From: an uncultured virus (IMG/VR IMGVR_UViG_3300046009_005838)
Taxonomy: Duplodnaviria > Heunggongvirae > Uroviricota > Caudoviricetes
Strand: one strand, 5' to 3'
DNA length: 64,000 nucleotides
IMG/VR virus record: IMGVR_UViG_3300046009_005838
Each line of letters starts with the position of its first letter. The first letter of the stretch is position 1. The notes under the pieces were generated by a model, which ran no database searches, was not told the origin of the DNA, and saw nothing but the letters and a program-made list of their open reading frames with translations. A program made the translations under genes and the position numbers. Shown one piece after another: positions 1 through 20,911 of the stretch.

Positions 1-129
1 GGCAAAGGACCGCAGACTTACAGGACCTTTGCCGACACCAAAGCCGAAGCAAAATCAAAAGTTTGCGCCTTCATGCAGACCGAACCAAACTCAATTCACT
101 CAGTTAAAAAACTAAAAAACTAAACGACC

Positions 130-426
130 ATGAAAATATATCAGCTAGTTTCCTATGTTAACGCATGGAATAAAAGAAAAAAAGAATGGGAATCGCTTCG
201 ATCTGAAACCACTGTTTATGTTGGCAAAGTAGGACTTAAAACAGCAACCGAACATTTTGAGCGAGAAGTTCATAAATACAAAGAATTAACCACTCAAGGC
301 AACTGGAATAAGTACGGAGAAACGCGAGGTAAAGTAGAGCTTCACGAACCGCATGTTCACGAAAACGGAACGCTCGCATATTGGGGCGACAAAATTATCC
401 TTTCACATAATCCTGAAAACATTTAA
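130..426 (+). CDS. hypothetical early protein
   Basis: 98-aa ORF directly preceded by AAACGACC, in the + strand early cluster. Confidence 0.7.
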   Translation: MKIYQLVSYVNAWNKRKKEWESLRSETTVYVGKVGLKTATEHFEREVHKYKELTTQGNWNKYGETRGKVELHEPHVHENGTLAYWGDKIILSHNPENI

Positions 427-438
427 CAACTAAACACC

Positions 439-717
439 ATGCAAACGACCGAACTAAGAGTAACAGACACCGCAGGAGGACACCAATTTGCCATCGTTGA
501 TGATAGCACAGGACAAGACATTGCCCTCGTTTACAACAGAAACGAACAAAGCAAAGAGACCGCACAACTTTTGGCAGCAGCCCCCGAATTGTTGGAAGCA
601 TTACAAAAACTAATTGATGACATTGAATATTCAAAAGACGTTATACCAATGGGAGCAATAGGGAATCGACAAATCAAATCAGCTAAAGCAGCAATCCAAA
701 AAGCCACACAATCATGA
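439..717 (+). CDS. hypothetical early protein (AAAPELLEAL-type small phage protein)
   Basis: Contains 'AQLLAAAPELLEALQ', a motif common in small phage proteins. Confidence 0.75.
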   Translation: MQTTELRVTDTAGGHQFAIVDDSTGQDIALVYNRNEQSKETAQLLAAAPELLEALQKLIDDIEYSKDVIPMGAIGNRQIKSAKAAIQKATQS

Positions 718-893
718 AAAACAATTCCCTCACAATCATCAAAGCAATTGCAGTATTGCTAGTGATTATCTCATTCCTTTCCTCTTGCAAATCTTCTCAC
801 GGATGCGGAGGTATCTGCTCCAATCATGGAAAGAAACAAGGCAAGTACACATCAATAAAGAAGAACTCTAACTCTTACAAAAATAGATTTTAG
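714..893 (+). CDS. small putative lipoprotein (59 aa, not in ORF track)
   Basis: Read by hand: MKNNSLTIIKAIAVLLVIISFLSSCKSSHGCGG...; hydrophobic stretch plus LSSC lipobox; ATGA overlap with the upstream stop. Confidence 0.65.
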   Translation: MKNNSLTIIKAIAVLLVIISFLSSCKSSHGCGGICSNHGKKQGKYTSIKKNSNSYKNRF

Positions 894-895
894 CT

Positions 896-1039
896 ATGAA
901 AGCATTCATCCAATCCAAAATTCACAACCGCATAAATGCCAGGGCAGCAGCCAAGGCAAACCAATGCCAACTCTACACACATTCAGACGTGATGTTTTTA
1001 CGCCAAATAAAACCAATTATAGCAGCATTAAAAGCCTGA
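896..1039 (+). CDS. small hypothetical protein (47 aa, not in ORF track)
   Basis: MKAFIQSKIHNRINARAAAK...; fills the gap in a tightly packed operon. Confidence 0.5.
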   Translation: MKAFIQSKIHNRINARAAAKANQCQLYTHSDVMFLRQIKPIIAALKA

Positions 1040-1042
1040 TAT

Positions 1043-1171
1043 ATGCCACGCAAACGACCAACCCCAACGAGGAAACTAGAATTCCATTTATTTTACGAAC
1101 TGTCTAAGGTCAACAGGCAGATAAAGAGATTGACCGCTGAGAAAACAACAACTAAAGACCAAACCAAATGA
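1043..1171 (+). CDS. small basic hypothetical protein (42 aa, not in ORF track)
   Basis: MPRKRPTPTRKLEFHLFYELSK...; its stop overlaps the next ATG (ATGA). Confidence 0.55.
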   Translation: MPRKRPTPTRKLEFHLFYELSKVNRQIKRLTAEKTTTKDQTK

Positions 1172-1563
1172 CCGAACCAATTTACGTGATCGAAACGCAT
1201 ACGGGCAAACGATACCCATGCTTCACAGACCAAGAACTGAAAGACACCACACGCTGGTTAGACCGAAAGAACATTGATTTCTACAAACGCACCGCGAAGG
1301 AAACCAAGACAATGTTCAACGACCGCGACCAGGAACCTAACATTTCCAAATACTTGACAACCGATTTATTTGAATTGTCAGCCAAGACCGCAGCGAATGA
1401 ACTATTGACAGCCCAACAAACAGACGAATTAAGCCGTTTAATTAAGTTTTTAGCGATGATCTTACAGCAAGCAGAGGAAAGTATAGTTCTGAAAGATTGC
1501 GCTCGTTATATAGCCTCTATTCAATCCAAAAGTTTCAGACACAATTCAAATATGCTATCATGA
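1168..1563 (+). CDS. hypothetical protein
   Basis: 131-aa ORF, translationally coupled to its neighbours. Confidence 0.7.
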   Translation: MTEPIYVIETHTGKRYPCFTDQELKDTTRWLDRKNIDFYKRTAKETKTMFNDRDQEPNISKYLTTDLFELSAKTAANELLTAQQTDELSRLIKFLAMILQQAEESIVLKDCARYIASIQSKSFRHNSNMLS

Positions 1564-1717
1564 TCTCAGACCTAGTAATCTACAAAGGCAATTCAGGACT
1601 GATTAAATTCGGCAGCGTATGCAAAGTACATTCATGCAGCGTTGACCGCAGACTGATCGTAGTTTCGTACTGGAAAACATTTGCCACCTTACCGGCCATT
1701 CAATTCGAGAACGTCCC

Positions 1718-1924
1718 ATGAGAATAGCAATTGCAACGGGATACGGAACGGCAATGAAGTTTGTCACCTCCCACAAAGGACCATACCAAATGACCACCGA
1801 TATGCATAGCGCGGACACCTTTGACACAGAAGCCGAAGCAAATTCAGTTATTCAGAAATTACCATTACCAATCAAACAAAGACAACCCCGAACCGTAACA
1901 CTTTCAAAACAATTTAAGCCATGA
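1718..1924 (+). CDS. hypothetical protein
   Basis: 68-aa ORF with ATGA overlaps. Confidence 0.6.
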   Translation: MRIAIATGYGTAMKFVTSHKGPYQMTTDMHSADTFDTEAEANSVIQKLPLPIKQRQPRTVTLSKQFKP

Positions 1925-2154
1925 CACTAACACGCACCTACACACCGCTACCAATGTTCGCCATAGACGGACTGAGAATTGACCGCCACACCTTTATCAA
2001 CATACTCAAACTCTGCACACGAGCTGGCATTGAGCCAACGGATATAAGCGAAGGCGCGGCTGCATCCTGGAATATTTCCAACTTGCCATCCGAAGCTATT
2101 GAGCAAGCAAAGAGAATGTCAACTGAAAGATTTGCCGCGTATGAAGCCAAGTAA
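1921..2154 (+). CDS. hypothetical protein
   Basis: 77-aa ORF with ATGA overlap. Confidence 0.6.
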   Translation: MTLTRTYTPLPMFAIDGLRIDRHTFINILKLCTRAGIEPTDISEGAAASWNISNLPSEAIEQAKRMSTERFAAYEAK

Positions 2155-2233
2155 ATCCGAGAAGGCATTTGCCTACACATTACTTGCAATTGCACTGTCA
2201 TGGTTAGCCTTCTGCTTTATTTTCTAACACCTA

Positions 2234-2264
2234 TTGCACAATCAAAAAATCCAACTTACATTTG
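2234..2264 (+). promoter_or_regulatory. Bacteroidetes sigma-A-type promoter (-33 TTG / -7 TAnnTTTG)
   Basis: TTG at 2234-2236 and TACATTTG at 2257-2264, upstream of ATG 2288. Confidence 0.65.
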
Positions 2265-2287
2265 TAATCCAATTCAAAACGACCAAA

Positions 2288-2479
2288 ATGAAACGACTAC
2301 TTAATTACTTTTTTTCTAGCCGTCCAACGGCACACCAACTTTGGAAGCAAGATTGCGCCCAAGGAGTTAAAGCTATTCTCACTCAAGAAGGAGGAAAGCG
2401 AAGCGAGATACACTCACAACTTGTTGCCCTCAAGCAGTCATTGACCGGAACGACTGCACCAATTTCAAATGTTAAGTGA
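2288..2479 (+). CDS. hypothetical protein (start revised to ATG 2288)
   Basis: MKRLLNYFFSS...; preceded by a promoter and AAACGACCAA. Confidence 0.6.
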   Translation: MKRLLNYFFSSRPTAHQLWKQDCAQGVKAILTQEGGKRSEIHSQLVALKQSLTGTTAPISNVK

Positions 2480-2666
2480 GATGGACAGCGAACTCAAAAA
2501 ACTATTCGAGGAAGTATTCAAGAATGTTGACCTTGAAAACTTTTCAGCAGAACACAAGGACGGCAATATACATATCCGAACCAACGGACTGTATCTTGTA
2601 ATGCCAGAGGATGCCTACCATGAAATGATAAAGACTTCATTGAAATCTAAAACCACTGAGCTATGA
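2469..2666 (+). CDS. hypothetical protein
   Basis: 65-aa ORF in the operon. Confidence 0.55.
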   Translation: MLSEMDSELKKLFEEVFKNVDLENFSAEHKDGNIHIRTNGLYLVMPEDAYHEMIKTSLKSKTTEL

Positions 2667-2753
2667 AGATTTTATTTTTCTACATTCAAGTCTTCCTTGT
2701 CAGCTTGCTTCAAGTTACATTGATAACTATTTTCAAACCACTAAATAAATAGC

Positions 2754-2957
2754 ATGACCATAGGACAACTGATTAAACAGGAACTCAAGAATCAAAACAT
2801 GAGGCAGAGTTTCCTTGCCAACGCAACGGGCATATCGAAGAACACCATTTCATCTATCTGCTCGGACAAGCACCGACCTTACGATGATACCATTGATAAA
2901 ATCTGCAAGGTATTGAAGGTAAAACTTTCTTTTTATTTTGAACCGATTGAATCCTGA
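2754..2957 (+). CDS. XRE/Cro-like helix-turn-helix transcriptional regulator
   Basis: 'IGQLIKQELKNQNMRQSFLANATGISKNTISSICSDKHRP...TIDKICKVL' fits the HTH_3 pattern. Confidence 0.85.
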   Translation: MTIGQLIKQELKNQNMRQSFLANATGISKNTISSICSDKHRPYDDTIDKICKVLKVKLSFYFEPIES

Positions 2958-3517
2958 TGCCACCGAAAACACACAAGCAATACCAAGAAGGATCCTTCGA
3001 AGCTAACTTCCACGAGATAGCCGATCCGCTGCTTATTGCCCTCGATGACCGCATTACAAACTTGACTGATAGGTTCAACGTCCAAAAGAGAATCAACCAA
3101 GAGGCACAGGTTCGCATCAAAGCCCAGGACGCAACCATCCGAGCAATGCAACGGGAACTTGCCGACCTACAAAGGCTGCACAGCCCACAAGTAATTGCAA
3201 GGATACAGAACAAAAGCGTTAACAGCATTCGGGACCAAGTAATTGACCACCTGAAAGAGAATTTCGAGAACGCAGGGAGCATACCCAAGCACGTGCTTAT
3301 TTCTGGGGGAGGCTTCACGCTGACAAACCTTCGCAATTATATTGCTAACCGATTCAGCGCGGACTATTCAAGCCGAAAGATTGTCAGCACTCAGGCGATG
3401 ACAAAGATAGTTCACGAGGCAGGATTGAACTCAGAGATTGAAACGCATGATCTCCTGATGCCTGACACTACCACGCAGCGATTTAGATTTTACAGAATTA
3501 AACTTAAACAGAAGTAA
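2957..3517 (+). CDS. hypothetical protein (coiled-coil N-half)
   Basis: 186-aa ORF between the XRE gene and the recombinase. Confidence 0.7.
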   Translation: MPPKTHKQYQEGSFEANFHEIADPLLIALDDRITNLTDRFNVQKRINQEAQVRIKAQDATIRAMQRELADLQRLHSPQVIARIQNKSVNSIRDQVIDHLKENFENAGSIPKHVLISGGGFTLTNLRNYIANRFSADYSSRKIVSTQAMTKIVHEAGLNSEIETHDLLMPDTTTQRFRFYRIKLKQK

Positions 3518-3527
3518 CCAAACGACC

Positions 3528-4256
3528 ATGGAAGCAAAAGCATACGGCATAGCACGAGTAAGCACGGGCAAGCAAGTGAAGTTCGGAGCATCCCTCGAAA
3601 TGCAAAACACAACAGTTCACCGCATGGCAAATGCCAACTCAGAAGAGATTGCTCACATCTTTGTCGATGAAGGAGTAAGCGGAGGCGAATCTACAAAGCG
3701 AGTTGAGTACACCAAACTAAAAGAGTTAATCAAAGCTGGCGCAGTGAAGTCAATCTATTGCTACCACATGAGCCGGTACGGACGTAACTTTGAAGAGCTT
3801 CAAGTGTTTTGGAAACTTTGCGAGAAGAATAATGTTCGCATCTTCCACGACCAAGATCATTTTGATTACCGAGGAACGATGGGCAAGTTCATGCGAAACA
3901 TAATGGGCACCATGGCAGAGTTCATCAAAGACACCGCATCCGACACTACATCTTCCACCCTGCAGTCAATGAAGCGAAGCGGGAGAAAGTATTCAGTGAC
4001 ACCTTATGGCTTCCGAGTTGTCAACGTCCGCAAGGATGATGATGGTAACGTGGTTTACAAGGGAGATTTAGAACCTTGCCCAACAGAAAGCGTTACAGTA
4101 AACAGAATGATATTCAGCAAAGAAAGCGGAGCATCTTTATCTTCAATAGCTGCAGGACTAAATGCTCTCGGAATCAAACCTCGCTGGGGCAAGAAATGGT
4201 CGCACTCGAATGTAGCTAGCGTGATTAATACTTACAAATCTTTGACTGAGAAATGA
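3528..4256 (+). CDS. serine recombinase (resolvase catalytic domain plus recombinase DNA-binding domain)
   Basis: 'YGIARVSTGKQ' catalytic Ser motif, 'DEGVSG', 'SRYGRN', then 'PYGFR...SLSSIAAGLNALGIKPRWGKKWSHSNV'. Confidence 0.9.
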   Translation: MEAKAYGIARVSTGKQVKFGASLEMQNTTVHRMANANSEEIAHIFVDEGVSGGESTKRVEYTKLKELIKAGAVKSIYCYHMSRYGRNFEELQVFWKLCEKNNVRIFHDQDHFDYRGTMGKFMRNIMGTMAEFIKDTASDTTSSTLQSMKRSGRKYSVTPYGFRVVNVRKDDDGNVVYKGDLEPCPTESVTVNRMIFSKESGASLSSIAAGLNALGIKPRWGKKWSHSNVASVINTYKSLTEK

Positions 4257-5617
4257 GAACCTTGCTTTTGATCTTGCTTTCTCTGAATCTTTCTGCCCAA
4301 GAAAATAGATGGTGGCACGTGGGAGGAAACATGAGGCTTGACTTTGCCACAAATCCGCCAACAGTTACAGCGGGAGGCTGCGTGAATACGACCGAAGGCT
4401 GCGCTTCTATTTCCGATGCAGCAGGCAACTTCTTGTTCGCAACGGACGGAGTTACGGCTTACAGTTCGAATTGCTCAATTATGGCCAACGGAACATTGCT
4501 TTCGGGAGGTGCAAGCTCAACCCAGTCGGCAATCATTGTCAAGAATCCTGTGCTGCCAAACATTTACTACATCTTCACAGCTTCTCAGGATGCTAGCGCG
4601 CCAGGCATTGCTTACTCAGAAGTCAACATGACACTCAATGCAGGACTTGGAGCAGTAACGGGCAACAAAAACATATTGCTCACTCCTGGATTAATTATGA
4701 GCGAGAAGTTGACAACTGCCTTGCATTGCAACGGTGAAGATGTTTGGGTAATTTCCAAACGATGGCAGTCGAATAACTATATGGCTTGGCTAGTTACCGG
4801 ATTGGGAGTTAACACAGTTCCGATAGTTTCTTCTGCAGGCTTCACGCCAAATCTTCCAAGCGGAGTTTCTTACGGGCAACTGAAAGCATCACCTTCGGGA
4901 ACAAAATTGGCTGCAGCTTATTATGGTTTCGCAGGAGGCTATGGTAACACAGGAGAGATTTGCGACTTCAACCGAGCAACGGGGCAAGTAACGAATCCTA
5001 TTTCGCTTGGAACAATTACGGGATTGTATGGAATTGAATGGTCACCAAGCGGAGAGATATTGTACGCTGCCACCAACCAAGGACTGCTTTATCAATGGCA
5101 AGTTTGCGTTAGCAATATTCCTGCAACTAGAACTCTAATTGCCAACACAGGACCGTTCTTTGGATCATTGCAGACATCACCTTACGGTCAGATAATCCTT
5201 GCCAAAGGAACGGCAACACGACACGCTTGCATACGGAATCCAGAAGGCATAGGCGCTGCCTGTTTGTTTACAGATAATTACTATGGGTTAATTGTTGGAT
5301 CTCGGATGGGACTGCCGAATTTCCGCCCTGACTTTATCTTCCAAGATCCGCAAGCATTTCAATTCAATGATGTAAATTGTCTTGCAATTCAGTTCATTTC
5401 TCCCCCTGAAACTTGTACAAGCGAACAAGTTATTTCTTACCTTTGGGACTTCGAAGATGGAACGACCTCAACACTTGCCAACCCTATTCATGCCTTTCCT
5501 AATTCATCGCCTCGGAACGTCACGTTAACGATCAATTACCAGTGCCGAAGCATAACTTTGTCTGCCAATGTCAACCCGATTGGAGGATTGTTTGGAGGCT
5601 TAATATTTATGAATTAA
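4253..5617 (+). CDS. secreted Bacteroidetes-type surface protein (beta-propeller-like repeats plus PKD domain)
   Basis: Signal peptide ending LSA|Q; 'EGCASISDAAGNFLFATDG', 'YYIFT', 'GIEWSPSG'; PKD motif 'YLWDFEDGTTSTLANPIHAF'. Confidence 0.75.
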   Translation: MRTLLLILLSLNLSAQENRWWHVGGNMRLDFATNPPTVTAGGCVNTTEGCASISDAAGNFLFATDGVTAYSSNCSIMANGTLLSGGASSTQSAIIVKNPVLPNIYYIFTASQDASAPGIAYSEVNMTLNAGLGAVTGNKNILLTPGLIMSEKLTTALHCNGEDVWVISKRWQSNNYMAWLVTGLGVNTVPIVSSAGFTPNLPSGVSYGQLKASPSGTKLAAAYYGFAGGYGNTGEICDFNRATGQVTNPISLGTITGLYGIEWSPSGEILYAATNQGLLYQWQVCVSNIPATRTLIANTGPFFGSLQTSPYGQIILAKGTATRHACIRNPEGIGAACLFTDNYYGLIVGSRMGLPNFRPDFIFQDPQAFQFNDVNCLAIQFISPPETCTSEQVISYLWDFEDGTTSTLANPIHAFPNSSPRNVTLTINYQCRSITLSANVNPIGGLFGGLIFMN

Positions 5618-5655
5618 GAAAATAGCATAGGCTTACAACTGAAACACCAAAACGA

Positions 5656-5853
5656 ATGACACCAAAAGAAAAAGCTGAAAACCTATTAGATTTTTATAGG
5701 AACTATAGGTTCCACATACATGAGGTAGATTGCAGGATCATGGCATTAAATGCTGTGAAGCACATCCTCTCTGTGCTGCACGATTCGCAAAGTGGTGCTT
5801 ACGAATACTGGAAAGAGGTAGAAAAAGAACTTGAAGTAACTAACCAACTCTAA
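5656..5853 (+). CDS. hypothetical protein (MTPKEKA-type)
   Basis: 'MTPKEKA...YWKEVEKEL' resembles small ORFs of Bacteroidetes phages. Confidence 0.7.
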   Translation: MTPKEKAENLLDFYRNYRFHIHEVDCRIMALNAVKHILSVLHDSQSGAYEYWKEVEKELEVTNQL

Positions 5854-5865
5854 ACACAACGAACA

Positions 5866-6210
5866 ATGACCAATCAGAAACTATTTGAAGCCCTTGAACG
5901 GCTATGTGGATTTACCGTACTTCAATCTGATATGTTTGAGATTATTCGTGCGGTAGAAGCGGATAAGATGCCAATGACCGAAACGATTGAACAAGCAGCT
6001 GAAAGATTATATCCATTTGCTCTTGGTGGTATAGGTAATTCGGAGGATGATAGAAAAAATCATTTTATAAAAGGCGCTAAATGGCAACAAGAAAGAATGT
6101 ATAGTGAGGAAGAAGTGTTAGATATTTTAGATAAACTTTTAACATCAATGGTTAAAGGTGAAAAAACAGGCTTAATGGAACATTGGTTTAAACAATTCAA
6201 AAAGAAATAA
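5866..6210 (+). CDS. hypothetical protein
   Basis: 'ETIEQAAERLY...FIKGAKWQQERMYSEEEV...WFKQFKKK', a recurrent small-phage-protein pattern. Confidence 0.75.
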   Translation: MTNQKLFEALERLCGFTVLQSDMFEIIRAVEADKMPMTETIEQAAERLYPFALGGIGNSEDDRKNHFIKGAKWQQERMYSEEEVLDILDKLLTSMVKGEKTGLMEHWFKQFKKK

Positions 6211-6358
6211 TATGAAACAAATATTAAAAGCATACTTTGTAGAATGTATGTTATTTCAATCAGACAAGCCATTTAATTGGTTTCTTGGAGGAGTGCAATG
6301 GTGTGTTTTTATATGGTGTTTATTTTAATACAATAATTTAAAAAGAAATAATATGAAA
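6194..6358 (+). repeat. 24-bp near-perfect direct repeat at gene junctions
   Basis: AATT(C/T)AAAAAGAAATAATATGAAA at 6194-6217 and 6335-6358, flanking a 38-aa mini-ORF at 6212-6328. Confidence 0.75.
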
Positions 6359-6583
6359 AAGCAAACAGCCGTTGAGTGGTTAGCGGAACAAGTAAATTCT
6401 GATTGTCTAAACTCGGTTTTTATAAGACCTGACCTAATAAAACACGCCAAAGCAATGGAGAAGGAGCAGATAATTGATGCGTTTGGCGTTGGTTGTCAAG
6501 TTGAATCAACAAGACTAATTGGCTATCACAAAATGGCAGAACAATACTACAACGAAACATTCACCGAAACTAAAAACGATTGA
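6353..6583 (+). CDS. hypothetical protein (KQTAVEWL-type)
   Basis: 'MKKQTAVEWL...AKAMEKEQIIDA...AEQYYNETF'. Confidence 0.75.
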   Translation: MKKQTAVEWLAEQVNSDCLNSVFIRPDLIKHAKAMEKEQIIDAFGVGCQVESTRLIGYHKMAEQYYNETFTETKND

Positions 6584-6594
6584 GATGATTTTAA

Positions 6595-6632
6595 TAAAAA
6601 AGCCTCGGAGAAATTCGGGGCTTTATTTTTTT
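6595..6632 (+). terminator. intrinsic terminator of the early operon
   Basis: AAAGCCTCGGA-GAAA-TTCGGGGCTTT stem-loop followed by a T-run. Confidence 0.8.
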
Positions 6633-6637
6633 ATTCA

Positions 6638-6667
6638 TTGCATCTTTCTTTGACTTTACTATCTTTG
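6638..6667 (+). promoter_or_regulatory. Bacteroidetes-type promoter driving the putative sRNA
   Basis: TTG at 6638-6640 and TATCTTTG at 6660-6667. Confidence 0.7.
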
Positions 6668-6671
6668 CAGG

Positions 6672-6751
6672 CAGAAAGTCTTTCTTGGTCGTTTGGCTTT
6701 CATCTTCCAAGCCGGAACAATCTTTTATGGTTGTTTCGGTTTTGTTTTTTT
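6672..6751 (+). ncRNA. putative small regulatory RNA (~80 nt)
   Basis: Own promoter; hairpin 1 GAAAGTC/GGCTTTC with 14-nt loop TTTCTTGGTCGTTT; hairpin 2 AAGCCGGAACAATC/GGTTGTTTCGGTTT plus T-tract (terminator); no credible ORF. Confidence 0.6.
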
Positions 6752-6785
6752 ATAGGTATATTTACGCCCAAAATATGTTTAAAAG

Positions 6786-7055
6786 ATGAGCCAAAGAGTA
6801 GCAAGAGGTCGCGTGTTTCAAGTTGACAACATGGACCGTAAATTCGGTGAAAATTTAACATACAATTTTGTATTCTTCGAAGACACAAGGGATGACAAAG
6901 GAAGAACTTGCGAGGACGGAGAACAATTACCAACAGAATATCCGTTATTGTTTACAGACAATGAAATCCAAGTTGCAAGGCAACGTGCGCTGAGAAACAA
7001 AGAAGATTTGTTGGAGAAGGATTTTCTCACAGACTTAACTGACGATTTGTTCTAG
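6786..7055 (+). CDS. hypothetical protein
   Basis: 89-aa ORF preceded by the promoter-like TATATTTAC (6757-6765). Confidence 0.75.
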   Translation: MSQRVARGRVFQVDNMDRKFGENLTYNFVFFEDTRDDKGRTCEDGEQLPTEYPLLFTDNEIQVARQRALRNKEDLLEKDFLTDLTDDLF

Positions 7056-7079
7056 CTACTTACCACTATTGCCTTTTAT

Positions 7080-7310
7080 ATGAAGTCATTGGAGTTTATT
7101 TCGCGCATAACACTTGAAGACATAGAATTCTATTCAGTTAACGCATTAGTAGGAATAGGTTCCATATTCACTCCTTGGCTGCAAGACTTAAAGGAAGTTT
7201 TAGGCGTTGTCGTTCTTGTTTCAGTTGTCATATACAATTATTGGAAGATAAGAAATGAACGCAAGCGCCATAAAAAGGATTCTCACAATACTCCTGCTGA
7301 CGACAAGTAG
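7080..7310 (+). CDS. small membrane protein, possibly holin-like
   Basis: Hydrophobic segments ('VLGVVVLVSVVIYNYW') followed by a basic/charged tail. Confidence 0.5.
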   Translation: MKSLEFISRITLEDIEFYSVNALVGIGSIFTPWLQDLKEVLGVVVLVSVVIYNYWKIRNERKRHKKDSHNTPADDK

Positions 7311-8025
7311 GCTAGTAAGTCAGTGCGATTCCGTTTGGAATGAAATGCTTTGGGCGAATAGCCCGACAACCGCTTCACTTTTATTTGGAGGCTATTGCTA
7401 TTCAGGAAACATTCAAGACACAACACTTTGCTTTTACCTTTTGCCCGAAGGCAATGGTGGCTTTATAGGATATGGCTTCACCTCTCCAGAGGGTTACAAT
7501 GTAGAGCTTATCTACACTTCGCAATACGATTCTGAATGCATCTTCTTTGATGACGGTCTTGTGTTCCAAAACCAGAATGCATCCTTCGATACTGTCTTTG
7601 TTTGCTTCGAACTGAGAACTGCTTACATTGATAACTTCTGCCCGTACTTCACTCCGTACATTGGCTTGGCAATTACTATTGGAGAATTCTCCGCATCAAT
7701 ATCGGAAGGAAATCTTGTCGTTAACTTGCAAACGCTATCAGAAACCAACTCAGACAAGGTGTTTTTGCAATGGTCATCTGATGCCATTAATTTCTATGAT
7801 CTTGATTGGAAGAAAGCATCTGGTAATTCAAGCAAAGAACGGTGGTATAAATTCACCAACAAGCCTCCGATGTTTGGAATTGTTTACTTGAGAATAAAGG
7901 AACTCGATCTAAATGGAAACTTGAATTATTCTGAAACCATTCCTTTCTTCCTAGAAATGCCTAATTGGAACATCATTCCCAATAGGTTTGGCTACTATGA
8001 TATTATTGGCAGAAGAACCAAGTAG
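7255..8025 (+). CDS. secreted protein with the Ig-like module typical of T9SS cargo
   Basis: Signal peptide ending LVS|Q; 'LAITIGEFSAS...LQTLSETNSDKVFLQWSSDA...YLRIKELDLNGNLNYSET' resembles the LPVEL..F/W.T.SE.N..F...S.DG module; ends 'YYDIIGRRTK'. Confidence 0.65.
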   Translation: MNASAIKRILTILLLTTSRLVSQCDSVWNEMLWANSPTTASLLFGGYCYSGNIQDTTLCFYLLPEGNGGFIGYGFTSPEGYNVELIYTSQYDSECIFFDDGLVFQNQNASFDTVFVCFELRTAYIDNFCPYFTPYIGLAITIGEFSASISEGNLVVNLQTLSETNSDKVFLQWSSDAINFYDLDWKKASGNSSKERWYKFTNKPPMFGIVYLRIKELDLNGNLNYSETIPFFLEMPNWNIIPNRFGYYDIIGRRTK

Positions 8026-9987
8026 TTATCTTCTGCCTCCGATCGGCTTAAAGCCAGCTCCAAGTGGATTCTCATTCGCCCGAACAGTTGCCAACTTCTT
8101 GACCATTTTGCCGCCCTCCATCACAGTGTAAACAACTTGCCTTTCGTTTGATCTGTTAGCATTAGTTGCAGCCTTTCTCAAAGCCTTTTCCTCCATCCAC
8201 CATAGTTGGATACACGCACCCTTGATAGCATCTGCCAAATCTCGGTTGCCAACGTCATGGTTCAAGCACTCATCTAGCAAATCAATTCCCCAGATACCTT
8301 CAATGCCTCCGATATTGCGTATCTCATCAAACCACCTTGCCCACGTTAGGAAGTGGTGTTCAATAAGGTCGGCATTGTGGATTGACTTCGCGTATCCTGG
8401 TTCAATATTCTTTGCATTCTGAGGTCGCCAAGGCGCTGGCTCTGGAAGTAATAGTTTCCCAAGACCAAGCCCAAGTCTTTCGTACTCAATAATGATAGCA
8501 TCCCCACGGTTTCTCTCGATCATTGTCGGAGCGCTATTAAACAACTTCTGCAACTTGATTGAGTTTCCAACTAACCTACTCACATCTCGACTTCCTTCTT
8601 TGTAGTAGCCAACAACACGCTTCAAGTCAGGTCGCATAATTGCTATCGCATAGTCAGAATTGCCCTCTGACTCCTTACGTGCGCTCAAGGGAATTGGATC
8701 CGTTCCGGCAACATACTCAACTCCAACTTGCGGAGGCTCCAATAACATGATCGGACTATTGTTCGCTTTCACTGCCTGAATTGCTCCGTCAGCAAGTGAG
8801 TGAAGATTGTAAGGTTCGAACTTGTACGTTTGGCTTACGTAAACTTTTTTCTTCTGAGTTTCAAATCTTTCACGCTCATCCTGCGACCAACTTCCTCCTG
8901 TGGTAGTTTCGAAAATCTCATCCACCGTAAGAGGATATGCCTTCATGAACTGCCAGTACGAAGACTTATCTCTGAGTGACTTTAGTATCTTCCTTGTTTG
9001 CTCAATCCACGCAACAGCTTCATCTTTCAGCGACCAACCGTTGACCATAAATGTTTGCTGACCTTTGCTGACGTTGCCTTGGGAATCGTAAATCGGAGCA
9101 GAAGCAATGCCCATCCAGCCAGGAACGAAGATAATGTTCACTCCCATCTTTTCGTGGTCATACCAAATCTCTTGTGCCTTTGCAGCACCATCCTCACTCG
9201 CATCACCAGCAGATCCACCCAAAGACAATCGACCTATATTGGTGAAGCCTGACTTTCTGGAAGCATCTGCAGAGTTCCGAACCTTGGTAGCAAACTCATG
9301 AAGAAAGAACTCATCAATGAAAGCATATACAATACGGTCGCCCTCCATGTTCTTTGCCGACTTAATACCATTACTTGTCTGCAATCCTTGTATCCTAGAA
9401 GTTCCTGTACCAACGGTAATCCTAATGTACCTACCGCCTTCGTTCCACTTGGTTTCTGGTTGCCATAATCTTGATCCGGCACCAAATTGCTTTCTCCATT
9501 CTTTCTCGGATTCCGCGTAGGCATTCTCTGCAATAAACTTCACTTTCTCAGTCATCAACTTGTACATTGCCGACTCAGAATAGGAAGTAAAGTTACTCAC
9601 AGAACCAGGGTAACGGATTGCTTTCTTGACACCTCGATATGCCGCAATGGAAGAGTAACCAAACTCCCTTCGCTTTAGCGTGAAGTCATCCATTTTATCT
9701 TTCTCGCAAGCATCAATCATTGGGAACACAACGAAGTGGTCAACGTCCCTCCACAGAGGACTTATGCCTTTACCGTAACCATCTTTAATCTTGAACTCTT
9801 GAAGGTATTCAACATGCTCTCCTGTCAACCCATTGTATCCGTCCATGAATCGCTCTTCCATTTTTATAGCCCACAGTTCGCCTTCTTTTCTATTTCTAAA
9901 GGTTGGCATTTGTTCGCGGGTATATAATGGTCCCCACTTTTCAGCCTTCTCTCTGGTAACTACTTCGGATTCTATGTTGGTTATCAT
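8026..9987 (-). CDS. terL: terminase large subunit (crAss-like)
   Basis: 'LKRREFGYSS' Walker A variant, 'AFIDEFFLH' Walker B, 'LGGSAG' coupling motif, RNase H-like 'VAGTDPI...DYAIAI...MIERNRG'. Confidence 0.85.
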   Translation of the reverse strand: MITNIESEVVTREKAEKWGPLYTREQMPTFRNRKEGELWAIKMEERFMDGYNGLTGEHVEYLQEFKIKDGYGKGISPLWRDVDHFVVFPMIDACEKDKMDDFTLKRREFGYSSIAAYRGVKKAIRYPGSVSNFTSYSESAMYKLMTEKVKFIAENAYAESEKEWRKQFGAGSRLWQPETKWNEGGRYIRITVGTGTSRIQGLQTSNGIKSAKNMEGDRIVYAFIDEFFLHEFATKVRNSADASRKSGFTNIGRLSLGGSAGDASEDGAAKAQEIWYDHEKMGVNIIFVPGWMGIASAPIYDSQGNVSKGQQTFMVNGWSLKDEAVAWIEQTRKILKSLRDKSSYWQFMKAYPLTVDEIFETTTGGSWSQDERERFETQKKKVYVSQTYKFEPYNLHSLADGAIQAVKANNSPIMLLEPPQVGVEYVAGTDPIPLSARKESEGNSDYAIAIMRPDLKRVVGYYKEGSRDVSRLVGNSIKLQKLFNSAPTMIERNRGDAIIIEYERLGLGLGKLLLPEPAPWRPQNAKNIEPGYAKSIHNADLIEHHFLTWARWFDEIRNIGGIEGIWGIDLLDECLNHDVGNRDLADAIKGACIQLWWMEEKALRKAATNANRSNERQVVYTVMEGGKMVKKLATVRANENPLGAGFKPIGGRR

Positions 9988-12913: not shown

Positions 12914-14406
12914 TAGGCAATGGCTTTTGCAAATTGTTCAAACTCACTCATTCTGCTAGTTTCAATTGCAACATATCTGAGCCAGCCCTTGGGCATTTTA
13001 TTATGCTGTCTGAAATCTTCTAATTCTTGCATGGTCATTTTTTGCTTCATCTCAATGGTTAAATCCCTCCACGTCAAATCCTTGTACGAGGTTACTTTGA
13101 ACCCTACTTCAATGGTCTTTTTGTCCGTAGCGGGGAAGGTGAAATTACATCTTTCAAAAGTATCGGGCAATATGTTATCGCATTTTTTTGCGGAGGCATA
13201 GCAATCTTGTTTGCACTTGGGGCATTTCTTCAATGGTGGCGCACCTTTCGTTCCCTCTGTATGCTTCAAAGAATAATTCCTTTGCATGTGCCAATACTTC
13301 AATCTTGAGATATTGTCAGCCATATCGACAATTGTAAAACTGTCTTTTACATTCGGAATTACCCTACTTCCCCTTCCGCACATCTGCAAGAAAAGGTTGA
13401 GCGACATTGTTGACCTATTCAAGACGACAACCTCAATTTCAGGATAGTCAAATCCGGTGGTAAAGATTGAGTTGTTGACAAGAACCTTGAACTTCCCTGC
13501 CTTCCAATCGGATTTTATTTGAGTTCTGTTTCCTGAGTAGGTTGACTTGTATTGGTCGTGGAGAATCTTTGCCTTCTCAACCTTGGTATCTGAAATGAAA
13601 TATTTTGCAGGAATCCCAGCTTCATTCAGCTCAAGGCAAGTCTTGATTGTGTTCTCTGAATTCGGGCAGAAGATGATTGTTACCATATTGGGAACGTCAT
13701 TCTTCATTATGTTAATCAATCCGTCATAAACCTTGGAAACGTCCATAGCCTTAGCCACATCTTCTTCCAAGAAATCAATCTCTCCATTGATCTTTGTCGT
13801 TCTAAAACCGCCAGAATCAATATCCAAATTGGCTTCAATGTAAAACGGAACACTCAACCACTTGTCATTAATTAGACTTTGAATATCTGGTCCGTTAATT
13901 ATTATCTGATAATCTTTTGCTAGTTGCCTTGACTTTCCAGTTCTTCTTGGCGTAGCAGATACTCCTAAAACCTTTGCATTACCAAATGCCTTCTGCTCAA
14001 AGAATGTATTGAACTCTTCTTTGTGGCACTCATCAATTACAATGTAGTCAAATGTATTCTGAATCCAATAAAAGTAATCAGGATTCTTAATCCTACGTTT
14101 CAGAGTTTGGCTCATTGCAACGTAAACAGCGTGGGCAATATTCAATCGCTTGCTCCGAGCGTCAATCATAAAAGGATGAATCCTGAGATCAACCAATGCT
14201 TGCGCGGAACCATCGTGCAGTTCTTCTCGGTCAGTAAGAATGAGAACTTTTGCGCCCTTGTCAATTACGTCTTTGATAAACATTGCAAAGGTGAACGTCT
14301 TTCCTGCGCCAGTTGCCATCTGCACTATTGCAGAATTGCCACCGCCCTGATAAAACCTATGTAGCCGTTCCCTAATATCTGTTTGATATCCTCTTTCCTC
14401 TTTCAT
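12913..14406 (-). CDS. superfamily II DEAD/DEAH-box helicase with Zn-finger
   Basis: 'MATGAGKT', 'DECH', 'SATP', 'TTGFD', 'QMCGRGSR', CPKC. Confidence 0.9.
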   Translation of the reverse strand: MKEERGYQTDIRERLHRFYQGGGNSAIVQMATGAGKTFTFAMFIKDVIDKGAKVLILTDREELHDGSAQALVDLRIHPFMIDARSKRLNIAHAVYVAMSQTLKRRIKNPDYFYWIQNTFDYIVIDECHKEEFNTFFEQKAFGNAKVLGVSATPRRTGKSRQLAKDYQIIINGPDIQSLINDKWLSVPFYIEANLDIDSGGFRTTKINGEIDFLEEDVAKAMDVSKVYDGLINIMKNDVPNMVTIIFCPNSENTIKTCLELNEAGIPAKYFISDTKVEKAKILHDQYKSTYSGNRTQIKSDWKAGKFKVLVNNSIFTTGFDYPEIEVVVLNRSTMSLNLFLQMCGRGSRVIPNVKDSFTIVDMADNISRLKYWHMQRNYSLKHTEGTKGAPPLKKCPKCKQDCYASAKKCDNILPDTFERCNFTFPATDKKTIEVGFKVTSYKDLTWRDLTIEMKQKMTMQELEDFRQHNKMPKGWLRYVAIETSRMSEFEQFAKAIA

Positions 14407-15020
14407 TAATCCCTACTTATGAATACAATCTCATCAGAATTAACAAAGTCCCTCGCTGTTGAAACCATGCTCTCAAGAATTATATCCGATTCATTAATAG
14501 ATTTTATCTTCCACTTTACATCTCCATACCTAATTTGAAGGGACGTTGTTGTATATCTTTTCGAAACAATGTCACCTATTTTATAGGAGAACACTCTAGA
14601 ATCTTCTTCTGATTCATACTTCCTATAATCTAAACCTGAAAGTATATTCTTTATGGCCGAAAACAAAGAGAAAGTAGGCGTTAAGTAGTCGTCAAATTTA
14701 TTAGAACAACCTTGAGCTGCCTGTATATTTAGGTTATTGAAATGTTCTTTCGGAGGCAACCTTTTTGATTCCCTTCTTTGAGGAAATTCAACATCGCATT
14801 CAAGTTGTAGGTAAAGATCAAATATGTCAACTGTAACTGCGTAATAGTAGTCAGATAATTCAACAATCTTCATTGCATCTGGAACACTAATTCCATGTTG
14901 CCTCCACAGTTGGTATGCCTTCTTAAATAAAACTGCCCTCTCAGGATTCTTTGTCATCTGCGACAATGCGCCCCCAATATTTTCTTGGTCTTGGTTCTGT
15001 ATGCTCTGGTCGTTTTCCAT
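14406..15020 (-). CDS. hypothetical protein
   Basis: 204-aa, AT-rich ORF in the operon. Confidence 0.65.
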   Translation of the reverse strand: MENDQSIQNQDQENIGGALSQMTKNPERAVLFKKAYQLWRQHGISVPDAMKIVELSDYYYAVTVDIFDLYLQLECDVEFPQRRESKRLPPKEHFNNLNIQAAQGCSNKFDDYLTPTFSLFSAIKNILSGLDYRKYESEEDSRVFSYKIGDIVSKRYTTTSLQIRYGDVKWKIKSINESDIILESMVSTARDFVNSDEIVFISRD

Positions 15021-15492
15021 CTTTTAAATTTTCTGTGTATCTCCTAACAATGTATCTTGATAACTTGTCTTTCGGGAGGTCAAATTCGGAGGCAAGGAAT
15101 CCCATGTGGCACTTGCCTTTCTTCTTCAAAAACTTCTCGTAAGCAAGTTCGTATTTCGTTGGTGGCTTGTTAAGGTATTCCAACTTCAATTTTTTGGCAA
15201 CCTTTAACTCAAATGCCACCCGATGAGTCTCCTTTGTTTCAGGAAGTACAAAGATACAATCTGCTTCGCTAATCCTTTGCCTCCAAATTACTTTTAGTGA
15301 TTCTTTGTCCATGTGGTAATCGCTAACAGGTGAAAAGAACGGATTGATAACATTGTATCCTTTCGCACGAAGATCCATTACAAGTCGCCTCCAATTAGTA
15401 ATCTTGAAATCAATCTTATGCAGTTTCTTCGGGCAGAAGGATATGTAAACTTTGCGCTTTTCGGTTGGCATTACCTTGATTTTATTCAGCAA
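14941..15492 (-). CDS. DUF4406-like (nucleoside deoxyribosyltransferase-like fold) protein with a C-terminal extension
   Basis: 'KVYIS...LRAKGYNVINPF...ISEADCIFVLP...VAFELKVAKKLKL'. Confidence 0.6.
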   Translation of the reverse strand: MLNKIKVMPTEKRKVYISFCPKKLHKIDFKITNWRRLVMDLRAKGYNVINPFFSPVSDYHMDKESLKVIWRQRISEADCIFVLPETKETHRVAFELKVAKKLKLEYLNKPPTKYELAYEKFLKKKGKCHMGFLASEFDLPKDKLSRYIVRRYTENLKDGKRPEHTEPRPRKYWGRIVADDKES

Positions 15493-17227
15493 ATTCTTTT
15501 ACTAAAACGTGACCTTCGGTAATCAATATCTCACCGGCACGAAGATCACCCTCAGTTTTGTCGTTTGTCGAAGTAACGAATATCAATAACCCATTTTTCT
15601 TGGCGAACTTGTCGTAGAGTTCATACACTTTGTTGTCCAACCCAGTGTCATCCACACAAAGTACGTTCAAAGGATATGCTCTCTTTTTCATCAGCGTACA
15701 TTGCAGCAATGCAGAGATCAAGACCTTTTGCGACTTGCTGTAACTTGTCAACGGTCTTAGGTCAGCATTGGGATTGCTAAAGTAAGTTGGATCGTATGCG
15801 CCAGTGTATTTGAAACCAAGTCTTTTGCCGTCCTCATCCGTCAACGAAATGATCAGACCTTTAACGCCAGTGTTAATGCCTTCGTAGAGTTTAATTCTTT
15901 CAGCACGTAAGTCCATCACTTCGTTATGAAGCGTTTCGTACTGCTGCTGTACATCGAATTTCTCCCAAAGGTCGTTTGAGGATTTGGCTTCTTCTAGTTC
16001 TTTGTCAAGGAAGTTCAACTTGTCTTCTGCTGCTTGGATTTCCTTGCTAGAATCTTCGATCGTTTCCGCTTGTACAGTTTCGATCTCCTTGTTTACTTTG
16101 GCAATTTCGACTCTTTTTTCGTTTACCAAAGAAACCATGTCGGAAAGTTCTTTCGGCAATGCATCAATGACTGCTGAATCTTTCGGGAGAGCATTGATAT
16201 CCAAGAGTGGAACGTAAGAGTCCTTTAGTTTCTCCCCTTCAACTGTAATGGCATCCAAAATGCTTTGAGAACAACTTAAAACCTCCGAATAAACTTTCGG
16301 ATATAGTTCAGAAAACTTCAATACTCTCAACGCAATTTCAAGGTTGCTGTGAGCATATTTTGCTTCGTCATAGCTATGAATTACCTGAGCAACTTCCTTC
16401 TCATACTCAACCCTGTGCACATCAAGAAACCGTTGAATATTATCCTTCTCAGCCTTTCCCGTTGTCATTGCAGAGTTAGCCTGGCTTTGAAGGCTGCTAA
16501 TTCTCAACGCCTTGTTTTGCTCAAACGAATCTACCTTGCCTTTGGCTGTGGCAATTTCGGTAATGATCGCTTCACGTTTCGCTTGAAAAGTTGAGATGTC
16601 AATAAAGTTCGGCTGAACCAACCCTTCTAGTTGAGTCTTGTAAGCACCGATCTTGACTTGCCTTTGGGAAACAACGTCACGTTCCTTTACCTTTTCATCA
16701 ATCTTCTTCTCAATATCCTTTGCTATATCAGCAACTTCGGGATACGTTGCAATGATGAAGTCAGTTACGGTCTTTTCGTTCTCTGACATGAACTTCGCAG
16801 AATCGTAAGTCAAGGTAGTAGAAAGCATCTCCCACATTCTGTTTGGAGTAATGCCTGTCAGTCCTTCAATCGGATCTTTGGTATTCTTCAACTTGCCATC
16901 TACTTCCGCTTTGAACTTGTAATCAACGCTGCCATCTTTCTTGGATACTGCTGAAATCCAAAACGACAATCCTTCGGGTTCTTTAGCGTCAGCAATCTTC
17001 ACTAGCACCTCGCAGGAATCCTCTCCTTCACGGAAGTACGAACCATCTCTTAATGCTGACTTGCCTTGTGTTGCCCACTTCATCACTTCAAGGAGCGATG
17101 TCTTGCCTGCACCAGCATTCCCTGAAATCACATTGGCACCGAAATGCTTTAGGATATCAATGTTAGTGGGCAAGATTGAACGGAATCCGTTGGGCAACTT
17201 GACTTCCGTTATGGTTAATGCTTTCAT
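15482..17227 (-). CDS. SMC/Rad50-like AAA ATPase with long coiled coil
   Basis: N-terminal Walker A 'GNAGAGKTS', central coiled coil, C-terminal 'YSKSQK' signature and 'LCVDD' Walker B. Confidence 0.8.
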   Translation of the reverse strand: MKALTITEVKLPNGFRSILPTNIDILKHFGANVISGNAGAGKTSLLEVMKWATQGKSALRDGSYFREGEDSCEVLVKIADAKEPEGLSFWISAVSKKDGSVDYKFKAEVDGKLKNTKDPIEGLTGITPNRMWEMLSTTLTYDSAKFMSENEKTVTDFIIATYPEVADIAKDIEKKIDEKVKERDVVSQRQVKIGAYKTQLEGLVQPNFIDISTFQAKREAIITEIATAKGKVDSFEQNKALRISSLQSQANSAMTTGKAEKDNIQRFLDVHRVEYEKEVAQVIHSYDEAKYAHSNLEIALRVLKFSELYPKVYSEVLSCSQSILDAITVEGEKLKDSYVPLLDINALPKDSAVIDALPKELSDMVSLVNEKRVEIAKVNKEIETVQAETIEDSSKEIQAAEDKLNFLDKELEEAKSSNDLWEKFDVQQQYETLHNEVMDLRAERIKLYEGINTGVKGLIISLTDEDGKRLGFKYTGAYDPTYFSNPNADLRPLTSYSKSQKVLISALLQCTLMKKRAYPLNVLCVDDTGLDNKVYELYDKFAKKNGLLIFVTSTNDKTEGDLRAGEILITEGHVLVKEFAE

Positions 17228-18619: not shown

Positions 18620-19453
18620 TTAAAGGTCGTTTGGATCGAGTTGAGTTGCTGCCTTTTCTATGGTGACAGTTCCCTCTACTCTTGCCTCTTTTTTAGGAGG
18701 CGTGTTTACCGGAATATCCTCAATGGTTTCCGAAATGTTTGTTAACTTATTGAAATCTCGATTGCCATTTTCTGTGTCGATCAGGCTCATTGCGTGGTCA
18801 AGTCTTTCTGACTTTGGCAAGAACTTGTAATGAGAGCGAACAACAGTCTTGATACACATTTCAGCGAACCATGCTTTCCATACAGTATCGGTTGTTGCCT
18901 TTCCTGCACGTTTCATGATCTCTTCCAAGTCAAGGATATGAGCATGTGTTCTTCCGTCTGGAAATTGAGCAACAGAATAGCAGTAAACAATCTTTGCATC
19001 AACAATTCTAGGCATAGCCCTCTTTGATCTTACAAATCCGCCAACTCCTTCTTGGTAGTTATCAATTTCTTTGTCGCAGTCGTAAACAGCACCACAAGAA
19101 ACTAACACTCCAGAGTCTTGAAACATAAGTTCAATCAAACCTTTGTAGTCAACAACCAAGGTGCATATATCTCCGCGAGGAACTAGGTGAGCAAGTTGTT
19201 TAATCGGATCCAATGTCAACCCACTCATAGCAACATTTGAAACAGCAGTGTAAATTGATTCAGGCTTGCAATCCATAATCTTTGGATTCTTCTGAACAGC
19301 CATCATTGCATAGCTTTTCTCCCGACTAAAAATCTTCTCAGCATCCTTGTTGTACATCTGAACAAATGCCTCATTTGCTCTCTGAATTTCAGTATTGAAT
19401 GTTTCTCTCTTAGCAAGCTGCAGTTGTTGAGAAACGCTTAAATTTTCGCTCAT
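18620..19453 (-). CDS. recT: RecT-family ssDNA annealing protein
   Basis: 'SIYTAVSNVAMSGLTLDP...AHLVP...DYKGLIEL...W..WFAEMCIKTVVR'. Confidence 0.85.
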   Translation of the reverse strand: MSENLSVSQQLQLAKRETFNTEIQRANEAFVQMYNKDAEKIFSREKSYAMMAVQKNPKIMDCKPESIYTAVSNVAMSGLTLDPIKQLAHLVPRGDICTLVVDYKGLIELMFQDSGVLVSCGAVYDCDKEIDNYQEGVGGFVRSKRAMPRIVDAKIVYCYSVAQFPDGRTHAHILDLEEIMKRAGKATTDTVWKAWFAEMCIKTVVRSHYKFLPKSERLDHAMSLIDTENGNRDFNKLTNISETIEDIPVNTPPKKEARVEGTVTIEKAATQLDPNDL

Positions 19454-20818: not shown

Positions 20819-20911
20819 GTGTTATTTAATTGGACTGCAATAATACAATCAAAAATAATAGCCTCCAAATTGTGCTTTCACTTTTTGTAAATATTTACTA
20901 TAATAGACTAT

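Follow-up and report, generated by a model that had tools for sequence, protein, structure and literature searches.

Here we report that a 64,000-nucleotide (nt) stretch of DNA from an uncultured virus of the Caudoviricetes (IMG/VR record IMGVR_UViG_3300046009_005838), referred to in its full length as the window, contains on its plus strand a stand-alone unit (6672-6750) that likely encodes a small RNA (sRNA) of about 78 nt. The predicted RNA displays, in the loop of a hairpin, the reverse complement of AAACGACC(A), a word that we call the tag and that recurs at the start codons of a set of the phage's own genes. As a feature of the sequence this arrangement is real, well defined and statistically strong, in its anatomy, its conservation in a relative lineage (contigs L003 and L004), its complementarity, and the position and predicted accessibility of the tags. 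We consider it somewhat likelier to be right than wrong that the unit specifies a trans-acting antisense sRNA, which would occlude the ribosome site of a tagged regulon of early and replication genes. An RNA of this kind had been put forward in an original prediction made from the letters of the window, all of whose coordinates and sequence statements are present there; its sRNA interpretation is partly supported, those parts that can be examined in silico having held up.

The unit and its predicted fold

The unit lies between two intrinsic terminators in a non-coding gap of 202 nt, all gaps in the window together amounting to at most 2.8 kb. Its elements, and the box and gene that follow it, are the following.

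6599-6624 (to 6636 with its tract), plus strand: upstream intrinsic terminator, 11 pairs, 5 of them GC, then ATTTTTTT; ends the left-arm early operon
6638-6667, plus strand: putative promoter of the Bacteroidota type, with TTG at 6638-6640, a 19-nt spacer and the -7 box TATCTTTG at 6660-6667
6674-6701, plus strand: hairpin 1, with a 7-bp stem GAAAGUC (6674-6680)/GGCUUUC (6695-6701)
6681-6694, plus strand: 14-nt loop of hairpin 1, TTTCTTGGTCGTTT as DNA and UUUCUUGGUCGUUU as RNA
6686-6694, plus strand: anti-tag seed UGGUCGUUU, the 3' nine bases of the loop, directly 3' of a YUNR-type UUGG
6709-6751, plus strand: intrinsic terminator of the predicted sRNA, with a 14-bp stem (6709-6742), a 6-nt loop and the U-tract TGTTTTTTT
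6757-6765, plus strand: TATATTTAC box, conserved in both phages, possibly an imperfect -7 box of the next gene
6786-7055, plus strand: gene for an 89-amino-acid (aa) protein, function not assigned, next to the unit in both lineages seen

The ends of the predicted RNA, 6672 and 6750, were set from the promoter and the U-tract. The upstream terminator follows the stop codon of the gene at 6353-6583, and has an A-tract on its 5' side and a T-tract on its 3' side, so that it should be readable on both strands; together with the terminator stem of the unit it makes up the two best terminator-like sites within positions 1-9000. Hairpin 1 is separated from the terminator hairpin by an 8-nt linker. 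Folding of the RNA from 6668 to 6752 agrees with the hairpin and the 14-bp terminator that the original prediction had drawn: the minimum free energy (MFE) is -25.5 kcal/mol compared with -13.7 +/- 2.7 kcal/mol for shuffled sequences (z -4.41), none of 200 shuffles folds as well, and neither the MFE nor the centroid structure pairs the loop. No Rfam family explains the unit. Across the whole window, none of the 4227 families of Rfam 15 reached its gathering threshold, and a permissive scan of 6550-6850 (E<=10) returned 21 weak matches, all far below gathering, of which RUF1 (15.8 versus 70 bits), MESTIT1_1, TCL6_2 and greA touch 6672-6750.

Promoters of Bacteroidota have been described with the consensus TAnnTTTG at -7 and TTTG at -33, the latter element being, according to the same account, one that was not recovered in Flavobacterium johnsoniae (PMC7366714). 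The box at 6757-6765, which had been taken for a promoter-like box belonging to the next gene, is present and conserved, but it is imperfect, and a -33 partner conserved between the two phages was not found. Its exact 9-mer occurs once in the window; at up to one mismatch there are 26 sites compared with 14.6 expected, without a link to gene starts.

Other uses of this stretch of DNA were considered and rejected. The plus-strand open reading frame (ORF) at 6638-6826, which might have been a small-protein gene, is broken by 1-nt indels in L004, and so is a minus-strand mini-ORF starting from the ATG at 6703. A minus-strand transcript, which would display the tag itself in its loop, is unlikely, as in both phages it is the plus strand that carries the conserved promoter and the two U-tracts.

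The complement of the loop is a tag at gene starts

The tag occurs ten times in the window, where 1.36 copies are expected, and none of 100 shuffled sequences reaches ten. Nine of the copies are on the coding strand of local genes, on both arms of the genome, and the only antisense copy is the loop; the shorter word AACGACC is likewise found 13 times in sense and once in antisense orientation. Seven of the nine sense tags have their first base at -11 to +10 relative to the ATG of an ORF of 42-242 aa. Such windows make up 4.9% of a strand, which gives a binomial probability of 2.3e-8 for at least seven of nine. The statement that the loop exactly mirrors a motif at seven or more gene starts is therefore borne out, one of the seven ORFs being doubtful. 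The nine sense tags are as follows.

122-129, plus strand: tag flush before the ATG of gene 130-426; duplex -15.7 kcal/mol, opening 1.39 kcal/mol; conserved in L003/L004
443-450, plus strand: tag at +5 to +12 of gene 439-717; conserved in L003/L004
1052-1059, plus strand: tag at +10 to +17 of a doubtful 42-aa ORF (1043-1171); the weakest target
2277-2284, plus strand: tag separated by 3 nt from the ATG of gene 2288-2479
3520-3527, plus strand: tag flush before the ATG of the serine recombinase gene 3528-4256; conserved in L003/L004
15008-15015, minus strand: tag at +6 to +13 of gene 14406-15020 (204 aa, replication module)
20802-20809, minus strand: tag at +10 to +17 of gene 20387-20818, the first of the exonuclease/RecT/helicase/primase operon
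15970-15977, minus strand: non-start tag inside gene 15482-17227, followed by T; opening 2.45 kcal/mol, duplex -11.6 kcal/mol
18625-18632, minus strand: non-start tag, followed by T, at the 3' end of the RecT-like gene and 41 nt short of the following ATG; opening 5.89 kcal/mol, duplex -11.2 kcal/mol (poorly accessible)

The regulon thus outlined covers the left arm and the replication/recombination operon, with no tags at gene starts beyond 20.8 kb. At the recombinase start the match extends to 11 nt, as had been noted originally: CCAAACGACCA at 3518-3528 is the reverse complement of 6686-6696, and the full pairing would form if two stem bases open. The tag at 2277-2284 lies 13 nt 3' of a promoter-like site, TTG-N20-TACATTTG, and a minus-strand TAnnTTTG is present at 20857, near gene 20387-20818. 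Gene 2288-2479 has, besides its exact upstream tag, a second, imperfect one, AAACGACT, right after the ATG (2288-2300).

The intragenic copies are read in three frames, as CAA ACG ACC (QTT), AAA CGA CCA (KRP) and GAA AAC GAC C (END), and the other copies are non-coding. Since three frames are used and copies also stand upstream of the ATG, the tag is a nucleotide signal and not a peptide, and the unrelated flanks of the copies argue that they are not paralogues. An unbiased count of 8-mers at -22 to +20 of the called starts puts AAACGACC, with 6 of 69 start regions, at the head of the list for the window. The same count in L003 places AACGACCA and AAACGACC at the top, with 8 and 7 of 24 start regions, and in the control phage Cellulophaga phi12:1 it yields only AATTATGG. 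Two other over-represented 8-mers of the window, TTGCCAAC and AAGCGGAA, were discarded as codon-bias words scattered within genes.

Accessibility and position of the tags

RNA folding predicts that the loop, and likewise the start-proximal tags, remain unpaired, in line with the exposed loop of the original prediction. Opening the seed UGGUCGUUU in its loop costs 0.44 kcal/mol. For the seven start-proximal tags, which have A (six tags) or G (one tag) as the next base, opening takes 0.2-1.6 kcal/mol, and their duplexes with the loop have energies of -13.2 to -15.7 kcal/mol, whereas the two non-start tags, with T as the next base, are less accessible and form weaker duplexes (values listed above). 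When the loop is compared with 72 start regions, 11 of them reach -12 kcal/mol or better, a value that 300 shuffled loops attain in 1.5 regions on average and in 8 at most. YUNR motifs in recognition loops have been described as general enhancers of antisense pairing (PMC4485353), and the UUGG beside the seed may form a U-turn.

The position of the tags is that at which an sRNA would be expected to interfere with translation. Pairing of an sRNA within the ribosome-binding site or a five-codon window after the AUG is reported to block initiation (PMC7534054), and all start-proximal tags, in both phages, are found at -21 to +17, inside the space occluded by the 30S subunit.

It should be noted that all of the pairing evidence applies equally to an RNA that pairs with the tags to another end, be it premature termination or Rho entry, as in the case of the P4 CI RNA, guided cleavage or decay of the mRNA, or activation of translation, either by opening structure or by recruiting the ribosome in a host that does not use Shine-Dalgarno (SD) pairing. 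We give such outcomes a small but appreciable probability. The CI RNA pairs with two complementary sites and thereby terminates transcription of replication genes (PMC4825925), and tags located within polycistronic operons would permit polarity. However, the tags are held tightly to the start codon instead of being placed in leaders or far upstream, which is where repressors, as opposed to activators, bind (PMC7534054). In addition, the tagged sites are already predicted to be open, so that there would be little structure for an activator to melt. Occlusion of the ribosome site is the outcome that we favour.

Conservation in a relative lineage

A metagenome scan with the 454-aa protein encoded next to the recombinase gene (79 loci) led to L003 and L004, which are overlapping contigs of one relative lineage, 82% identical in the 454-aa protein, and the only relative that could be reached. 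Their DNA forms a mosaic with that of the window, with 65-99% identity in five or six blocks. The unit is present in L004 at 6388-6497, the RNA part occupying 6418-6497. Its promoter has the form TTG-N19-TACCTTTG with a spacer sequence unrelated to that of the window, its hairpin 1 has lost one base per arm and gained basal U-A and G-U pairs and one G/G mismatch, and its terminator has a different stem with the U-tract on the same side and strand. Also, the gene 5' of the unit differs, and the 89-aa gene 3' of it is conserved. Despite these changes, a 20-nt block around the loop, CTTTCTTGGTCGTTTGGCTT, is identical in both phages within a local alignment of 71% overall identity, and the loop must therefore be more constrained than its surroundings. 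The loop, whose conservation the original prediction required, is thus retained letter for letter while flanks, stem and upstream gene differ. The L004 unit folds with -23.9 kcal/mol (z -3.30; 1 of 200 shuffles as good), and its loop is again unpaired in the MFE and centroid structures.

The tags, too, are found at gene starts in the relative, in support of the sRNA interpretation. L003 contains ten tags, all in sense orientation, nine of which are at -21 to +5 of the starts of eight genes, one of these genes being preceded by two exact tags in tandem; the tenth tag lies inside the ORF at 130-333. The recombinase gene has its tag flush with the ATG in both phages although the upstream sequence is unrelated, and in the L003 orthologue of gene 2288-2479 the tag is flush with the ATG, meaning that the spacing has moved by 3 nt.

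The search for further examples gave the following results. A covariance model built from the two homologues matched only these two (106.6 and 94.7 bits) and detected no further copy of the unit in 82 sources (1.11 Mb). A start-linked tag pattern was not found among the other 79 loci, 54 of which have no copy of the tag. Two candidates among the loci were rejected, a start motif in L009 that reflects a paralogue family, and five tag copies of mixed orientation in L038 that are not start-linked. IMG/VR yielded neither a match to the 28-mer or the 18-mer of the loop region nor a relative of the neighbouring 89-aa and 653-aa proteins; two other neighbours have relatives there at 36-41% identity, which are tag-free. 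The 16-mer of the loop has at least 114 matches in IMG/VR, which were rejected as chance: among the 80 examined, none has the context of stem and terminator. About 60 of these 80 loci (e.g. L084) represent one coding context in near-identical viral contigs of 45-90 kb from a single data set. The loop 20-mer was met in genomes in one Marinomonas coding region, likewise attributed to chance.

These data bear on the possibility that the unit is no more than a terminator-rich gap with a hairpin loop that happens to match an over-represented word. Only two lineages are available, and the loop was chosen after the motif had been seen. Nevertheless, chance is very improbable given the tag statistics jointly with the conservation of the loop over 20 nt, and the 80 unrelated viral loci that share the 16-mer contain at most two tags each.

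Another possibility is that the tag serves a purpose of its own, as the site of an RNA-binding protein of the phage or the host, a translation enhancer or a short boundary for the exchange of modules between phages, and that the loop does not regulate the genes that bear the tag. Of the five blocks of similarity that the window shares with L003, two have a tag at one end: the block at window positions 25-134 (L003 2394-2503) ends just past the tag and ATG, and that at 3520-5620 (L003 from 5486) starts at the tag. The 110 nt 5' of gene 130-426 are 99% identical between the phages, the gene itself having been replaced. The tags may mark module junctions. The phage encodes RecT-like and exonuclease proteins, and the RegA and RegB proteins of phage T4 offer an example of proteins that read short motifs in many early starts (PMC3014915). 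We nonetheless regard this explanation as unlikely. The chance that a 14-nt loop contains the complement of a given 8-mer is approximately 7/65536, and about 0.04 for its occurrence anywhere in the gaps of at most 2.8 kb. Besides, the loop is conserved over 20 nt at a local identity of 71%, and a protein specific for AAACGACC would not recognize the complementary word. Finally, the 16S rRNA of E. coli (rrsA), used as a proxy for that of the host, does not contain the complement of the tag on the rRNA strand at up to two mismatches. A loop that acts on the tags as an antisense seed is the explanation that we prefer.

The adjoining 89-aa gene

The 89-aa protein is 67% identical in L004, and nine further clusters have identities of 62-91%; this family of ten clusters has an invariant acidic C-terminal stretch. 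Searches gave no Pfam, PHROG, PDB or atlas lead, and tblastn against GenBank phages gave no match. As the gene is found beside the unit in both lineages seen, its product could be a partner of the RNA.

The same association raises the possibility that the unit is a 5' leader of the 89-aa gene and the two genes downstream of it, with the terminator serving as an attenuator and the short RNA as a by-product. In favour of this, the 89-aa gene has stayed with the unit in both phages although the gene on the other side has changed, the box that may serve the 89-aa gene as a promoter is imperfect and lacks a conserved -33 element, and in L004 an alternative fold of the nascent RNA pairs loop bases with the 5' arm of the terminator. 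This fold, however, is not predicted in the window, and the pairings that would be possible differ in register between the phages. The terminator is long (14 bp) and has a full U-tract, the TATATTTAC box is conserved between it and the 89-aa gene, and a leader gives no reason for the loop to be the complement of the genome's top start-linked motif. We hence hold a leader to be quite unlikely, and a free-standing antisense RNA remains the preferred explanation for the unit.

Observations that weigh against a trans-acting sRNA

A number of observations argue against our interpretation and should be considered together. Firstly, the small RNA is predicted from the sequence, and a search of RNA runs for window positions 4000-9000 listed none that contains them. 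In the freshwater metatranscriptome run X22, an exact contig of 207 nt covers 6379-6585, corresponding to the upstream 76-aa gene and possibly due to DNA carry-over in the library, and two further short T-rich pieces within 1-9000, with 7 mismatches each, were judged spurious. None of these pieces covers the unit, which says nothing either way, as contigs cannot show small RNAs. Secondly, the proposed promoter is present and its spacing is kept in L004, but the pattern TTG-N18-20-TAnnTTTG is not enriched in the window (4 observed versus 3.7 expected) and its -33 element amounts to only TTG, so that the promoter call depends on conservation in L004. Thirdly, covariation in the stem is minimal, with 1 of 13 consensus pairs changed on both sides and the G/G mismatch in L004. 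Furthermore, only two lineages were compared, and as loop and tag are the same in both, there is no true covariation between them. The constant linkage of the unit to the 89-aa gene would fit a leader as well.

As to the targets, 4 of the 11 best duplexes involve start regions without a tag, which indicates that energy alone is unspecific and over-calls targets. The 5' half of the loop (UUUCU) is conserved and yet has no conserved partner in the targets, and, for a host in which no sRNA chaperone is known, a seed of 8-9 nt is short. The tag at 1052-1059 is absent at the matching place in L003 and carries G1056A in the relative from run X12, and it is lineage-specific.

The phage and its genome

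The window (41% GC) has no close DNA match among GenBank phages. A tblastn search with the primase-helicase returned 22 phage records at 28-35% identity, 20 of them from Flavobacterium or Cellulophaga phages, and near-identical DNA is present in lake and river metagenomes. Because of these matches and occurrences, the source appears to be an uncultured freshwater phage of a Bacteroidota host. The search for tRNA and tmRNA genes in the window found none. PHROG families are mostly absent for the large proteins beyond the replication operon: at E<=1e-5, the 3520-aa ORF at 29328-39890 on the minus strand has none, and neither have 11 of the 15 proteins in the same scan, which suggests a poorly charted phage lineage.

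Genes are oriented on the plus strand from 1 to 8025 and on the minus strand from 8026 to the end of the window. The left arm contains many small ORFs, a Cro/CI-type helix-turn-helix (HTH) protein (2754-2957), the 242-aa serine recombinase (3528-4256) and a PKD-domain protein, and the adjoining minus-strand operon has genes for exonuclease VIII-like, RecT-like and ERCC4 nuclease proteins, a helicase and a primase-helicase. The serine recombinase, which is short, overlaps the 454-aa PKD-domain protein by ATGA (window 3528-5617); relatives of the latter at 30-50% identity are encoded on many marine and freshwater contigs, some of them longer than 100 kb. The stretch just 5' of the unit (5681-6600; L004 5477-6385) is a replacement hot-spot. 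L004 has a different ORF of about 300 aa there, and the contigs of the X12 relative span 1-5681 and 6601-8997, leaving the intervening stretch uncovered. The convergent genes at 7255-8025 (plus) and 8026-9987 (minus) abut directly, without a spacer or terminator, so that minus-strand read-through could run antisense over the plus-strand genes and the unit; for a minus-strand transcript, the next terminator-like site would be the two-sided one at 6599-6624.

Proposed mechanism and comparison with known systems

We infer that the unit is transcribed, that pairing takes place in vivo, that its outcome is repression, and that the RNA serves early shut-off or immunity. In this model, the host RNA polymerase would transcribe the RNA from the Bacteroidota-type promoter, and the intrinsic terminator would end the transcript. 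Hairpin 1 would hold the 14-nt loop open with the 3' nine bases, UGGUCGUUU, as the seed, which would pair with AAACGACC(A) as a private tag in the ribosome footprint (-21 to +17 around the AUG) of mRNAs that constitute the phage's own early, recombinase and replication-module set. Pairing would block binding of the 30S subunit, probably followed by decay of the mRNA, and accumulation of the RNA would lower the whole tagged set together. The RNA could act as an early shut-off timer, or as an immunity factor if the phage is temperate, although the 242-aa serine recombinase and the small HTH protein do not prove temperance. Features of the sRNA class that are seen here are the 3' Rho-independent terminator, the conserved single-stranded seed, and accessible complementary sites at positions relevant for translation.

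The exposed loop sequences of c4 RNA act on sites at a ribosome-binding region; the RNA is processed from the operon transcript that it controls, and it serves one operon. It is a trans-acting RNA of 77 bases that represses the synthesis of Ant in phages P1 and P7 by base pairing (PMC8546580). Like c4, the RNA predicted here would be a phage-encoded trans-acting RNA of similar size, but a promoter-like site and a terminator belong to the unit itself, and its targets, at least six to seven, are dispersed over both arms. The CI RNA of P4, which pairs with seqA and seqC and so keeps the replication genes off (PMC4825925), is likewise a small phage RNA with more than one complementary site in phage transcripts. 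It differs in being processed, in terminating transcription, and in having two sites in untranslated RNA rather than a start-codon regulon. Whereas these immunity RNAs are processed from the operon under their control, the present unit is flanked by terminators and has its targets on both arms, and it belongs to neither family, without an Rfam match (C4 included if in release 15).

In function, the closest counterparts would be RegA and RegB of T4, each of which is one factor that recognizes a short motif in many early start regions and contributes to early shut-off (PMC3014915). They are, however, proteins, and what they recognize is generic and not a dedicated tag for an RNA to read: in the case of RegA an A+U-rich region that includes the AUG, in that of RegB the GGAG Shine-Dalgarno sequence. 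Thus, c4 and P4 CI may be regarded as the nearest RNA precedents, and RegA/RegB as the nearest in function. Bacteroidota are described as having no SD sequences, Hfq or ProQ, and GibS of Bacteroides thetaiotaomicron, from the same phylum as the presumed host, pairs across the start codons of its targets and binds them in vitro without protein (PMC7366714). Unlike the RNA predicted here, with its 9-nt seed in a hairpin loop, GibS is chromosomal, 145 nt long, and uses an unstructured 5' seed of 30-50 nt; the two have no sequence or structural similarity.

In summary, we have described a predicted phage RNA that may control, through a tag at their start codons, a set of early and replication genes of the same phage. 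To our knowledge, base-pairing RNAs with which phages control phage genes are limited to a handful of enterobacterial cases, each acting on one operon, and phage gene regulation in Bacteroidota is, as far as we know, almost unexplored; in the open-access literature that was searched we found no described case of a phage sRNA of this kind in Bacteroidota. We tentatively propose, as an idea more likely to prove wrong than right, that Bacteroidota phages run tag/anti-tag regulons, in which a private tag of 8-9 nt and an RNA that displays the anti-tag in a loop together form a master switch that does not need a chaperone. It is conceivable, though by our estimate rather less than probable, that the present phage is the clearest free-standing example of such a regulon, having its own promoter and terminator and 6-9 targets per genome on both arms. 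The system is small and specified by sequence, with a 9-nt seed and listed targets, and is therefore directly testable. If true, it would be an RNA equivalent of RegA/RegB of T4, with one RNA reading a dedicated tag on many starts, and would be a first worked example of post-transcriptional timing in Bacteroidota phages. If it works, it would also provide a portable, orthogonal translational switch for Bacteroidota.

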